Source: Candidatus Parcubacteria bacterium (GTDB taxonomy: Bacteria; Patescibacteriota; Patescibacteriia; Patescibacteriales; Patescibacteriaceae). From it: 55,212 bases of DNA. The translations under genes and the position numbers were made by a program. Shown in pieces: positions 24,146-32,440 of this stretch; within the stretch, counting starts at the first letter, position 1; every line of letters starts with the position of its first letter. The notes beneath the pieces were generated by a model that was not told the origin of the DNA, ran no database searches, and saw nothing but the letters and a program-made list of their open reading frames with translations. Location: the NCBI GenBank assembly GCA_023459655.1, contig JAEWTE010000040.1:1-55212 (forward strand), written 5' to 3'.

Positions 24146-26716
24146 ATGAAAAGTTCATCGCGTCATATTGCCTGGCTATTAGCCGGTGGGTGTTTACTGT
24201 TTTTGATCATTGCTCCATTGGCTATGGCTCAAATCGGTTCAGCTGATGATTCTTTAGGTGTTGGTTATATGGAGGGGACTGGTTTATCGCAACAAGACCC
24301 GCGAGTAGCGGCTGCTCGGATTATTCAGATTGGCTTGGGGTTATTGGGAACAATTGCGGTTGTTTTAGTTATTTATGCTGGGTTCTTATGGATGACCAGT
24401 GAAGGCAATGCTGATAAATTACAAAAAGCTAAACAGATATTAAAATCAGCGGCCATTGGTTTGCTGATTATTTTATCGGCTTTTGCTATCGTAACTTTTG
24501 TAATTGATCGTCTTAATAGTGCACTTGATGGTGGATCAGGTCAAACAACGGTTGATTCAGTCCCGGATAATAGTTTGATTGGTTTAGGTGCTTTAGGTAG
24601 TGGTATTGTCCAGAGTGTTTATCCCTCGCCTGGTCAAACCGATGTTCCCAGAAATACTGGCATAATTATTACTTTTCGTGAAAAGATGAAGGTCTCAACT
24701 ATCTGTCAAGGAGGTGATGATGCTACTAGTGTTTGTAATAATGCTAATATAGTGGCTGATAATATTAAATTTTTTCAAACAGAAGTTGGTGATAATTCGG
24801 CTACTAATTTAGCGGCTAATAAAATTAAGGTTAGTACAAATGATGGGCTAATTTTTGTTTTTGCACCAGTTGATTATTTAGGTTCAGCTAGCGGTAATGT
24901 TTGGCAATCGGTTAAATTAACAACTGGACTGCGCAAAGCTAATAATCAGCCAGCTTTTAATTTGGGAGATTTTACCTGGCAATTTGAAGTTAGTACTCAG
25001 GTTGACCTAACCCCTCCGCAAGTTAAATTGGGTGGAATTTTACCTTTTCCAGATAATGGTCGTGATCTTAATTTGGGAGTTCAGGCGGCTCAGGTCGCCA
25101 CGGCTACTATTCAGGTTTTGTCTATTCCTCAATCAGCTGCTATCGCCTCAGTTGGTGGGCCAGTACCTTATGGTGCCTCTGGATCAGCCCGAATTGAGGG
25201 TGATTATAATTGTGCTAATGATGGAACAATTTTTGTTTCGGTAGTGGCTGGTAATCCATTAAGGGCGCAGGCTGTTGGTATTTCTGGGCTAATTAATGAT
25301 GAAGATGTTAGTGACGGACGGATTAGTTTGGGTTGTGGTTTGACTCTAATTAAAAATGGTAGTTTGGCACCCGATAATCACGGGACTTTAGAGGCCGGTA
25401 ACGGTTGGAATATTATAGTTAAAGCATTTAGGCATGGTGAAATTTTATCAGTGGGTAGTCAATCATATCGTTTTGTTAATTCGGCGGACAATAATCCAAA
25501 CCATATTGTTACTGCCACTAGTTTAGGCGCTATGGTTAATAATATTGTTAATAAAATTAATCAAACTAACATTGATGTTAGTGCTTCTAATATTGGGTCT
25601 AATGTTATTTTATTACAAAGTAAAGTAGCTGGTAGTAGTGGAAATTCATTAAATTTATCGACTGACAGTGCTAGTTTATATGTTTCATCATTTAGTGGTG
25701 GTTTAGATCGACGTGAAACAATTGATGTTCAAGATCTTCCAGATACGCCGCGTAATTCGATAATTCAATTAAATTTTTCTGAACCAATCAATCCTTTAAC
25801 TGTGGTTGGTGATAGTAATTATGTTAGTAGCACTATTAGAGTAATAAATACTGATAATAATCAGTCAGTTAGTGGACGATTTGTTATTTCTAATCAATAT
25901 CAGACTTTAGAATTTATTCCTAATGTTGAATGTGGAGTCAATGCTTGTGGTGATAAAATTTATTGTTTGCCAGCTAGTAGTTCAATTGCTGTCGAGCTAA
26001 GAGCCGCCCCTTTGGCTAGTTGTTCTAGTAACCCTGATTGTTTTAATAAAGCTCCATATAATCAATGTGCTGGTGGATCTTGTCGGCGGGCGGCAGATGA
26101 TTATTATCCATTAGCGGCGTTACCTTTATCTAGTGGTTTAGTCGACGCCAGTTTTAATTCGCTGGATGGAAATCGTGACTCTAAAACAACTGGTCCAACT
26201 TCTTTTTATAGTGAGAATTCAAAGAATCTTGCTCAAAAGGATAGTTATAAGTGGTCATTTTTTGTTAATGATGAAATTGATTTAACTCCACCTCGGTTGC
26301 AATCGTCATCTTTATTGCCTGGTTTAGGTTTGACTAGTGGGTTATTGAATCAGCCAATTGAATTTAGTTTTGACAAATTAATGATGGCTAGCACTTTAAA
26401 TAGTGGTGATATAATTATTAATAATCAAAATCATCGTTTAATCAATTTGTTTAGTGCTGGCGTCGCCCCTAGTTATTGGGTGGTTAGTCAAGCAATTGAC
26501 TCTGGTGTGCCTGATGGCTATCCTGATTTTACTAAAGTTATTATTAATCATGGACAATTATCTGATGCTACCAAATATTTTATAGAAATAGGTTCTGGTG
26601 TTAAAGATTCTCGTCAAAATTGTTTTAAGCCCTGTCGTGATGATGGTGCTTGTTCAGCTAGTTCAGCATCTTGTTGCAACGGCCAGCCATTTGCTTCATC
26701 AACTTGCATTCAATAA
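24146..26716 (+). CDS. Surface protein: TrbC/VirB2-like (T4SS-pilin-like) two-helix module fused to Ig-like (SbsA_Ig-like) domains and a Cys-rich C-terminus
   Basis: ATG 24146 gives the signal peptide MKSSSRHIAWLLAGGCLLFLIIAPLAMAQ. Pilin-like module RIIQIGLGLLGTIAVVLVIYAGFLWMTSEGNADKLQKAKQILKSAAIGLLIILSAFAIVTFV. Ig-like start VYPSPGQTDVPRNTGIIITF. Confidence 0.7.
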   Translation: MKSSSRHIAWLLAGGCLLFLIIAPLAMAQIGSADDSLGVGYMEGTGLSQQDPRVAAARIIQIGLGLLGTIAVVLVIYAGFLWMTSEGNADKLQKAKQILKSAAIGLLIILSAFAIVTFVIDRLNSALDGGSGQTTVDSVPDNSLIGLGALGSGIVQSVYPSPGQTDVPRNTGIIITFREKMKVSTICQGGDDATSVCNNANIVADNIKFFQTEVGDNSATNLAANKIKVSTNDGLIFVFAPVDYLGSASGNVWQSVKLTTGLRKANNQPAFNLGDFTWQFEVSTQVDLTPPQVKLGGILPFPDNGRDLNLGVQAAQVATATIQVLSIPQSAAIASVGGPVPYGASGSARIEGDYNCANDGTIFVSVVAGNPLRAQAVGISGLINDEDVSDGRISLGCGLTLIKNGSLAPDNHGTLEAGNGWNIIVKAFRHGEILSVGSQSYRFVNSADNNPNHIVTATSLGAMVNNIVNKINQTNIDVSASNIGSNVILLQSKVAGSSGNSLNLSTDSASLYVSSFSGGLDRRETIDVQDLPDTPRNSIIQLNFSEPINPLTVVGDSNYVSSTIRVINTDNNQSVSGRFVISNQYQTLEFIPNVECGVNACGDKIYCLPASSSIAVELRAAPLASCSSNPDCFNKAPYNQCAGGSCRRAADDYYPLAALPLSSGLVDASFNSLDGNRDSKTTGPTSFYSENSKNLAQKDSYKWSFFVNDEIDLTPPRLQSSSLLPGLGLTSGLLNQPIEFSFDKLMMASTLNSGDIIINNQNHRLINLFSAGVAPSYWVVSQAIDSGVPDGYPDFTKVIINHGQLSDATKYFIEIGSGVKDSRQNCFKPCRDDGACSASSASCCNGQPFASSTCIQ
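24320..24396 (+). repeat. 77-nt near-identical segment (copy 1) shared by the two pilin-module genes
   Basis: attattcagattggcttggggttattgggaacaattgcggttgttttagttatttatgctgggtt is identical for 65 nt, followed by 1 mismatch and then 11 identical nt. The partner copy is at 26897-26973. Confidence 0.9.

Positions 26717-32440: not shown

Follow-up and report, generated by a model that had tools for sequence, protein, structure and literature searches.

Two adjacent genes of a Candidatus Parcubacteria bacterium, an uncultivated, ultra-small and Falkowbacteria-like member of the Patescibacteria, each open with what looks like a small conjugative pilin and then run on into a very long chain, which raises the question of whether the opening module is a pilin at all and of what a pilin would do at the root of a giant protein. 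The genes, here called G1 and G2, lie in contig JAEWTE010000040.1, of which a stretch of 55,212 nucleotides (the window) was analysed. An earlier note, made from the letters of this DNA, had described a signal peptide and a pilin-like hairpin of the type IV secretion system (T4SS) kind at the start of both genes, fused to long further chains of adhesin-like make-up. In this study, both proteins were found to carry a full-length relative of the free pilins of the Patescibacteria at the N-terminus, followed by passengers of 715-1760 residues with Ig-like, TIG, Cys-rich and Fn3 parts, as the note had it, and the pair was found, beyond what the note knew, to be a conserved and syntenic feature of the whole lineage. 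In the best reading of these findings, which we hold with moderate confidence, G1 and G2 constitute a conserved two-gene operon for "modular VirB2-like pilins". The parts of the pair are listed below; models were made with AlphaFold2 (AF2), whose confidence is given as the predicted local distance difference test score (pLDDT).

24146..26716, + strand: G1, 856 residues, with signal peptide, pilin module, linker and an all-beta passenger of ~715 residues
24146..24229, + strand: predicted signal peptide of G1 (residues 1-28), a hydrophobic segment with an AxA motif, ending in AMA before Q at a putative type I signal-peptidase site; model helix 4-26
24230..24526, + strand: predicted mature pilin module of G1 (residues 29-127), with the conserved LG.GY..TGL..DPR lead-in, helix 1, basic loop TSEGNADKLQKAKQILK and helix 2
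24527..24571, + strand: linker of G1 (residues 128-142), of low pLDDT; free pilins stop at the same point
24572..26713, + strand: passenger of G1, a chain of Ig-like beta-sandwiches with Big_5 at both ends, an alpha/beta insert at about residues 440-520 and a Cys-rich C-terminus
26726..32440, + strand: G2, 1904 residues, with signal peptide, pilin module, GPGGPGGPGGP linker and giant passenger
26726..26815, + strand: predicted signal peptide of G2 (residues 1-30), ending in VQA before Q at a putative cleavage site; model helix 3-27
26816..27103, + strand: predicted mature pilin module of G2 (residues 31-126), from the free-pilin profile match and the AF2 hairpin
27104..27160, + strand: Gly/Pro-rich linker of G2 (residues 127-145), from the sequence and the low pLDDT past residue 127
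27161..32437, + strand: passenger of G2, with Big_5 at residues 150-244, the Cys motif HCCNGQKDGDEIGIDCGGSCLNC at residues 364-386 and TIG repeats (best stretch residues 659-738)
within 27161..32437, + strand: distal part of the G2 passenger, with a Cys-rich block at about residues 800-1400, a second Big_5 at about residues 1360-1412 and two fn3 domains, the first at residues 1713-1786

Both open reading frames (ORFs) are co-oriented on the + strand, with 9 nt between the stop codon of G1 and G2; G1 starts with the ATG at 24146, and a TTG at 24125 is an alternative start. The motif quoted in the earlier note, RIIQIGLGLLGTIAVVLVIYAGFLWMT..GN.DK...AK..LK.A.IGL.IILSAFAIV.FV, is present in both. 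Over residues 1-185, which take in the signal peptide, the module, the linker and the opening part of the first Big_5, the two proteins are 50% identical; beyond these residues they diverge. Their predicted mature N-termini read QIGSADDSLGVGY... and QTIDDLGVSY..., and their C-termini ...CCNGQPFASSTCIQ and ...SVQNPIVGGC.

The N-terminal module and the passengers

The root of both proteins matched the pilins of the Patescibacteria. Against the Pfam family PF18895 (T4SS_pilin), G2 scored 30.0 bits, above the cutoff of 26.6, and G1 scored 25.9 bits, 0.7 short of it; against a profile built from 120 free pilins, the scores were 154.7 and 139.6 bits, respectively, and the G2 alignment spanned positions 4-124 of 130. 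G1 and G2 were the sole two matches to the free-pilin profile in a six-frame translation of the window, which by this measure holds no further pilin module. Moreover, in a joint alignment the fused proteins matched the free pilins end to end, and the passengers start where the free pilins end. Sub-threshold NCBIfam matches pointed to the Mbov_0395 pilin-like conjugal transfer family. Hydropathy, charge and the AF2 models also gave the layout of the pilin family, namely a signal peptide, a short exposed lead-in, two hydrophobic helices and a short basic loop; the small stand-alone size of PF18895 pilins (~100-180 aa) is not shared by G1 and G2. In comparison with the described PF18895 pilins of the Patescibacteria (PMC10633639, PMC12102498), the first ~130 residues of G1 and G2 have the signal peptide, lead-in, helices, basic loop and invariant Gly and Trp in common, but the described pilins are small, stand in arrays and often lie near virB4, whereas G1 and G2 are a fixed pair with 715-1760 extra residues in a housekeeping block. 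The profile matches bear out the signal peptide and pilin-like hairpin that the earlier note had seen opening both genes and, judged from its sequence, the module is a complete T4SS-type pilin of the Patescibacteria and not a generic anchor.

Three hydrophobic segments were recognised in each protein: the signal peptide, helix 1 and helix 2. The inter-helix loops, TSEGNADKLQKAKQILK in G1 and TAAGNEDKIKRAKDVLK in G2, contain 4-5 Lys/Arg and are net positive, and the flanks (the 30 residues past helix 2 and the stretch before helix 1) have an acidic net charge. Applied to this distribution, the positive-inside rule predicts a cytoplasmic loop and both ends outside. Furthermore, there are 109 Cys residues in G2 and 18 in G1, nearly all of them in the passengers. 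Because of this charge distribution and Cys content, the passengers are placed outside the cell, so that in the predicted topology both lines of evidence agree with the outside position that had been proposed for the C-terminal mass. The AF2 model of the G2 hairpin, made from family alignments, has helices at residues 51-82 and 88-127 with pLDDT 90-95, and the G1 model (mean pLDDT 86.4) has them at residues 52-83 and 89-127. Residues 123-142 of G1 form a disordered linker with pLDDT below 50, beyond which the all-beta passenger is modelled at pLDDT above 90. Gly-rich linkers are typical of other giant relatives too.

Pfam recognised Big_5, TIG, fn3, Big_7 and Big_3_2 as the only domains in the passengers. 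Compared by Foldseek, the full G1 model matched generic multi-Ig proteins, including the MG domains of bacterial alpha-2-macroglobulin, cadherins and an archaeal S-layer protein. The TM-scores were ~0.1, as is to be expected of a flexible chain of domains, and with such scores and such generic matches, no functional assignment was made for G1. The passengers themselves are conserved: that of G1 could be aligned over 99% of its length at 38% identity (60 species), and that of G2 over 81% at 32% (60 orthologs), with a conserved core at residues 400-1800 and variable parts at residues 130-400 (the membrane-proximal 270 residues) and 1800-1904. These comparisons indicate that G1 and G2 are core, vertically inherited surface proteins rather than hypervariable adhesins. 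As a separate observation, a stretch of G1 (residues 464-510; window 25535-25675) has a weak NCBIfam match to flagellar hook-associated protein 2 (FliD; E 0.017), and it coincides with the alpha/beta insert of the model (helix 460-474) in the otherwise all-beta passenger. This stretch resembles the flagellin "IN" motif.

Conservation of the pair and likeness of its roots

A search with full-length G1 retrieved 119 protein clusters, nearly all with PF18895 and Big_5 in their precomputed Pfam annotation, and full-length relatives extended down to 28% identity. The clusters came from Falkowbacteria, Magasanikbacteria, Uhrbacteria, Buchananbacteria and unclassified Patescibacteria, and their database names included "pilin", "Ig-like domain-containing protein" and "TrbC/VirB2 family protein". 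When one genome of each species was scanned, at least 584 stretches proved to code for a relative, a number that takes in small pilins picked up by their pilin motif; the best 80 were full-length, which is far more than chance would give, and the closest among these was that of Falkowbacteria UBA1359 (67%). The 80 genome loci were examined solely for extra pilin modules and synteny. A pilin-module gene lies directly 3' of G1 in 62 of the 69 loci with enough flank, at a median gap of ~21 nt and with some overlaps, and RelA lies 5' of the pair in 58 of 66. The orthologs of G1 measure 749-1013 aa, and complete orthologs of G2 measure 594-3082 aa (median 1951). Moreover, the same locus occurs in independent samples at 96-100% protein identity, and a near-identical locus was found in wastewater, landfill, bioreactor and manure metagenomes.

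The order of the locus is signal peptidase I, HisRS, S21, RelA (opposite strand), G1, G2, TSP3a, TSP3b, YbeY, DagK, FtsA and FtsZ, and some genomes insert a ~1000-aa gene and a ~100-aa gene between G2 and TSP3a. A similar layout is seen in two more ABY1 genomes (Uhrbacteria GW2011_GWA2_41_10 and a 1.08-Mb contig), where signal peptidase I, HisRS, S21 and YqeY are followed by a pilin-Big_5 protein of 617-633 aa and then by a pilin giant, which measures from 1796 to more than 3483 aa.

Within the proteins, the root is the most strongly constrained part. Against 60 distant G1 homologs, identity was 53% in the module, 39% in the passenger and 16% in the signal peptide, and the residues invariant in free pilins (G67, G78, W81, G86 and G104 in G2 numbering) are invariant or near-invariant in the fused family. 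The roots of the two genes are also more alike within a genome than between genomes. In 64 genomes, the G1 and G2 modules of the same genome were 66% identical on average, whereas the cross-genome values were 54% for G1-G1, 52% for G2-G2 and 52% for G1-G2; none of 2000 permutations went above 0.548, and in 62 of the 64 genomes the two modules of one genome were more alike than the cross mean. At the DNA level, the likeness in the window is concentrated in helix 1:

24318..24396, + strand: gene-conversion tract, copy 1 (G1 helix 1), 79 nt with 2 mismatches to copy 2
26895..26973, + strand: gene-conversion tract, copy 2 (G2 helix 1), with a 65-nt exact run within the tract

The flanks of the tract are 49-64% identical. 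Helix 2 is as conserved as helix 1 in protein, yet carries many synonymous differences at the DNA level. Exact runs of at least 20 nt between the two roots were found in 17 of 63 other genomes, compared with 7 of 300 cross-genome controls, and 4 genomes had runs of 44-89 nt. The higher within-genome likeness and the conversion tracts therefore reveal recurrent gene conversion that homogenises the roots of G1 and G2, and this conversion keeps the two roots interchangeable.

Surface fibre, pilus subunit or coat

What a pilin would do in this position may be pictured as follows. Sec would export G1 and G2, and signal peptidase I, encoded by a conserved neighbour, would remove the type I signal peptide. 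What remains in the cytoplasmic membrane would be the mature pilin module of ~100 aa, a helical hairpin whose basic loop faces inward and whose ends face outward; from the outer end of helix 2, a flexible linker would lead to the Ig-like/TIG/Cys-rich/Fn3 chain, projecting as a fibre. From the domain counts, G1 might extend for a few tens of nm and G2 for several times that length. The roots, kept alike by gene conversion, would probably lie side by side in the membrane or dock to a common partner. We consider it rather probable that G1 and G2 are, in this sense, a core, lineage-wide pair of surface fibres, pilin-rooted in the membrane, that serves attachment and/or envelope architecture.

Several points weigh against the reading as pilin-rooted surface fibres. 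The Pfam model TrbC/VirB2 (PF04956) has a cutoff of 27.9 bits, and the two proteins reached just 11.6 and 13.7 bits with it, so that the profile comparison suggested in the earlier note came out positive for PF18895, where G2 lies above and G1 just below the cutoff, and negative for PF04956; PF18895 and PF04956 occur together in the precomputed Pfam annotation of a few free relatives and of three G1-family members (P0171, P0177 and P0199). In hhalign, the module profile and Agrobacterium VirB2 alone gave a probability of 34%, and the module profile and a five-sequence VirB2/TrbC alignment (the Ti-plasmid VirB2 and four relatives) gave 68% (E 4.7e-5), in register over 55 columns comprising DP, helix 1, WM and helix 2, with an inter-helix loop that is 8 residues longer in the Patescibacteria module. 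Kinship to canonical VirB2 is moderately supported by this comparison, the similarity itself being moderate only; of the VirB2-type assignment made earlier, the identity as a Patescibacteria pilin stands, and the link to canonical VirB2 is the softer part. A search of PDB sequences with the module profile found no match even at E <= 10, and Foldseek with the hairpin model found unspecific helical hairpins only, none at E <= 0.001, a two-helix fold being too simple to discriminate. Moreover, gene conversion may be neutral for adjacent paralogs, and the stronger conservation of the root could reflect a constraint on insertion or packing and not a pilin-specific function. An adhesive role of the passengers is a guess for conserved orthologs with merely generic Ig-like matches; in the earlier term "giant adhesin-like", the Ig-like, TIG, Cys-rich and Fn3 make-up is upheld, and the word adhesin stays a guess. 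RNA evidence is thin and holds nothing quantitative: three small contigs in each of two sludge metatranscriptomes map inside G1 and G2, which suggests that the genes are transcribed, and two "RNA-Seq" runs labelled metagenomic have flat, DNA-like coverage. Finally, the label "pilin" is itself a prediction, and the wording of a 2025 review goes no further than a "potential to elaborate conjugative pili" (PMC12857230).

The best-surviving alternative goes beyond an anchor. G1 and G2 could be true modular T4SS pilins, built with free pilins into a VirB2-type pilus as minor or tip subunits and displaying adhesin chains, a proposal that we regard as possible but doubtful; by extension, they might replace VirB5- or PrgB-type adhesins, in analogy with PilB and PilC of type IV pili. 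The full pilin signature of the root, under stronger constraint than the passenger, is in keeping with this proposal, and so are the nearest free pilins, which are 50-64% identical to the root and sited elsewhere, in arrays, in related lineages. In the Patescibacteria, VirB2-like pilins (PF18895 and PF04956) were reported from 1,948 VirB4-containing assemblies, often in arrays of 2-11 genes and near virB4 in 1,135 of the assemblies (Quinonero-Coronel 2025, PMC12102498). In the same survey no PrgB-like adhesin was detected in the Patescibacteria, and its Table S1 lists four Falkowbacteria genomes with the present locus as VirB4-positive. T4SS machinery is therefore available in such genomes, but as evidence for the proposal this is weak: VirB4 is present in most Patescibacteria, so its co-occurrence carries little weight. 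Moreover, a pilin array and the T4SS are essential in Southlakia epibionticum (Wang 2023, PMC10633639; review PMC12857230), and in enrichment cultures, the expression of T4SS pilins ranks among the highest for genes of unknown function (PMC10936435). Cryo-electron tomography has shown an 8.6-nm tube between a Patescibacteria parasite and its host.

The geometry of known pili is pertinent to the same proposal. Canonical VirB2 of Agrobacterium, TrbC of RP4 and TraA of F have a leader cut by signal peptidase I, a hairpin, a cytoplasmic loop and termini outside, and G1 and G2 are predicted to be alike, but the organism that carries G1 and G2 is a monoderm, and no solved pilin was matched by the sequence or fold searches. 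In the solved F- and T-type pili, both pilin termini lie on the outer surface, as reported by Costa et al. (2016). A C-terminal passenger would be topologically compatible with polymerisation because of these outward termini, and the flexible linker fits; the head-to-tail cyclisation of VirB2 and TrbC would presumably be excluded by such a passenger. A working precedent for modular pilins exists in type IV pili, with PilB and PilC of Streptococcus sanguinis and with CofB, GspK and ComZ (Raynaud 2021, PMC8179133). Those pilins share the design, in which a short linker joins the N-terminal pilin to a grafted functional module that is displayed on a filament or at its tip. This is an analogy only: type IV pili are an unrelated filament family, and their pilins have one N-terminal helix behind a class III signal peptide and depend on PilB/PilC/PilD machinery, whereas G1 and G2 have a type I leader and a two-helix hairpin. 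Identity with type IV pilins (T4P, IPR012902) was itself considered and ruled out, as the leaders are of type I (28-30 aa) and there is neither a class III signal peptide nor an N_methyl match. With the VirB5 tip protein, the LPXTG protein PrgB and the extended VirB6 of Rickettsiales, G1 and G2 might share a role as a T4SS surface adhesin or as a T4SS membrane subunit extended by large hydrophilic domains, but they have no sequence kinship to these proteins, are fused to the pilin fold itself rather than to VirB5 or VirB6, and lack an LPXTG sorting signal at their C-termini.

Against incorporation into a pilus stands first the position of the genes. The absence of VirB4, VirD4, VirB6 and other T4SS genes from the window, noticed earlier, was confirmed and extends over scaffold positions 1-69,976 (of 135 kb); in relatives with Pfam-labelled genes, no T4SS gene is labelled within 10 kb of the pair. 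Unlike the array pilins, G1 and G2 lie outside pilin arrays and away from virB4, and their fixed housekeeping block suggests a constitutive envelope role. In addition, no T4SS pilus of the Patescibacteria is known to have been isolated, and a passenger of 715-1760 aa on a subunit of 100 aa would be sterically extreme. A passenger on every subunit being so extreme, a low-stoichiometry or tip position is therefore the only plausible form. That the T4SS extracts the root from the membrane and polymerises it with free pilins is a tentative idea, which we would not expect to hold. In the same tentative spirit, G1 and G2 may be put forward as the first natural "modular conjugative-type pilins", polymerised by the T4SS, probably at the start of assembly so that the root ends at the tip.

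A second alternative, which we judge unlikely and which overlaps the reading as pilin-rooted fibres, makes G1 and G2 an S-layer-like coat or envelope scaffold, tethered by the hairpin and with no role in host attachment or the T4SS. Big_5 domains are typical of S-layer proteins, as in the Ig-like domain of SbsA, and count for this alternative. Like S-layer and Ig-repeat proteins of the SbsA and archaeal types, G1 and G2 are long, conserved, chromosomal Ig-like chains with Big_5; they are single-copy and vertically inherited, their passengers are moderately conserved throughout, the best structural matches include an S-layer protein from an archaeon, and the fixed block includes Ca-binding TSP3 neighbours and the envelope and division genes LytR and FtsA/Z. 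However, it is a pilin hairpin that anchors G1 and G2, in place of an SLH domain, a lipid or one C-terminal helix, and neither SLH nor any other wall-binding domain was found in the Pfam scan of G1 and G2. The structural matches are generic, as described above, the range of G2 lengths is unusual for a lattice protein, and the pilin-likeness of the root would be left unexplained.

It is very unlikely that the hairpin is an export leader for membrane targeting only, with the passenger cut in the linker and released or re-attached elsewhere: the linker is disordered and Gly/Pro-rich, as such a scheme would have it, but a signal peptide alone, which both proteins have, would suffice for export, no other part is as conserved as the hairpin, and no protease site or dedicated protease was identified. 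An artefactual fusion by gene calling or assembly, for which nothing but the unusual size could speak, is ruled out by the continuous frame in at least 80 species genomes from many studies; the fused frame is seen in both adjacent genes, and G1 is modelled as one chain with a confidently folded passenger.

Neighbouring genes and the wider pilin family

The following further features of the window belong to the surroundings of the pair.

20266..20865, + strand: signal peptidase I (S26, Pfam), a few genes 5' of the pair and in the same place in Falkowbacteria and the two other ABY1 genomes
24091..24118, + strand: weak promoter-like site 5' of G1 (TTGGCT-16-TATACT, consensus scan)
32447..32470, + strand: weak terminator-like hairpin (5-bp stem) and T-run directly 3' of the G2 stop
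32502..33311, + strand: TSP3a, predicted single-pass membrane protein with Ca-binding TSP3 repeats (Pfam TSP3_bac), also at loci L001 and L003
33335..34693, + strand: TSP3b, predicted second membrane protein with a TSP3 repeat (Pfam and synteny)

A promoter and terminator scan of the region gave site numbers no higher than in shuffled sequence, and the two sites listed are plausible by position only. Among the 54 loci with enough flank, TSP3a is kept in 33 and TSP3b in 19; by synteny, these proteins may be part of the same surface structure. The constant place of signal peptidase I may reflect plain neighbourhood or a functional link to the processing of the long leaders. Between HisRS and RelA, a basic 77-aa ORF (22279-22512) is conserved in relatives and is probably rpsU, to judge from a weak Ribosomal_S21 match of the Uhrbacteria ortholog. 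In many relatives, an extra gene of ~1000-1585 aa without a Pfam match, usually accompanied by a ~100-aa gene, lies 3' of G2 (L003:19195-22490, L018, L019, L026, L027, L097:17239-21854 and others); this gene is absent from the window. Farther 5' of the pair, at positions 93-13643, a row of genes that all point the same way encodes proteins which are predicted to be secreted or membrane-bound and mostly lack a Pfam match. Among them are a protein of 1254 aa (5803-9567) that bears the BppL_N motif of phage lower baseplates, a FlgD_ig and Por_Secre_tail protein (10746-12134), whose sorting domain of the type IX secretion system is odd for a monoderm, and two cupredoxin-like proteins (2196-2810 and 13083-13643). 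As to the source of the loci, many contigs of public metagenome-assembled genomes that carry the locus (L010, L011, L013, L044, L060 and others) are labelled "uncultured Gammaproteobacteria", and single contigs are labelled "Candidatus Nanoarchaeia archaeon" or "Saccharimonadales"; these labels look like placeholder or wrong taxonomy.

The architecture of G1 and G2 is not confined to the pair. When 1.84 billion representatives were searched exhaustively with the profile, 69,333 proteins matched at E <= 0.001. Among the best 150 of these, 91 had a single module, comprising 65 proteins of up to 200 aa, 4 of 200-500 aa and 22 of 595-4158 aa, and the other 59 had 2-17 tandem hairpins per chain. 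In the 20 large proteins that were inspected, the module is strictly N-terminal and is followed by a Gly-rich linker or by a Cys-rich motif, of which G2 carries a diverged version. The pilin with a passenger is thus a regular, previously undescribed branch of the PF18895 family. A word-indexed search with the module alone had given a picture in which all relatives were short; it had missed G1 and G2 themselves, and this artefact of candidate selection was corrected by the exhaustive search. The searchable literature holds no paper on VirB2-type pilins fused to large passengers, and the surveys PMC12102498 and PMC12857230 do not mention the architectural diversity of PF18895. The root of G1 and G2 accordingly belongs to a known pilin family, and it is the fusion of large passengers to a VirB2-type pilin that is not described in the searchable literature; as the earlier note supposed, whether such a fusion acts as an anchor or as a polymer has been neither tested nor described there.

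Relatives of other forms were observed as well. The tandem-hairpin proteins (P0240, P0241, P0245, P0249, P0266, P0297 and P0301) have one signal peptide and include, for example, a protein of 820 aa with 8 modules and one of 1775 aa with 17 matched stretches. These "polypilins", of which no description was found, could be multi-hairpin membrane proteins or precursors that are cut into pilins. Two arrays of free pilins (L005:4691-14498 and L006:7705-14445) contain ~10 PF18895 genes with products of 121-405 aa, so moderate extensions are common. A solute-binding-protein gene lies just 5' of these arrays or inside them, and Band_7 and tyrosine-recombinase genes lie 3'; no VirB4 was found within 10 kb of either array.

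The Patescibacteria make up a large share of bacterial diversity and, to our knowledge, all cultivated members live attached to other microbes. Only Southlakia among them is open to genetics, and it cannot do without its T4SS and pilin array; for the phylum, no T4SS adhesin has come to light (PMC12857230, PMC10633639, PMC12102498). If G1 and G2 were indeed polymerised, the pilus would bear a giant two-protein adhesin, which would fill the place of the adhesin missing from a T4SS on which a cultivated relative depends for its epibiotic life, and pilin grafting, known from type IV pili, would have arisen independently on the unrelated VirB2 fold. As it stands, the PF18895 family is very large and diverse, ranging from free pilins through giants of up to 4158 aa to proteins of 2-17 hairpins. 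In the present locus, this pilin fold forms the root of very large surface proteins, and the pair keeps its one chromosomal site throughout Falkowbacteria; at least two other ABY1 genomes have similar pairs. The locus supplies concrete, well-folded candidates for the surface fibres of Falkowbacteria-type cells, and it offers a clean test case of whether a "pilin" family serves as filament subunit, membrane anchor or both.

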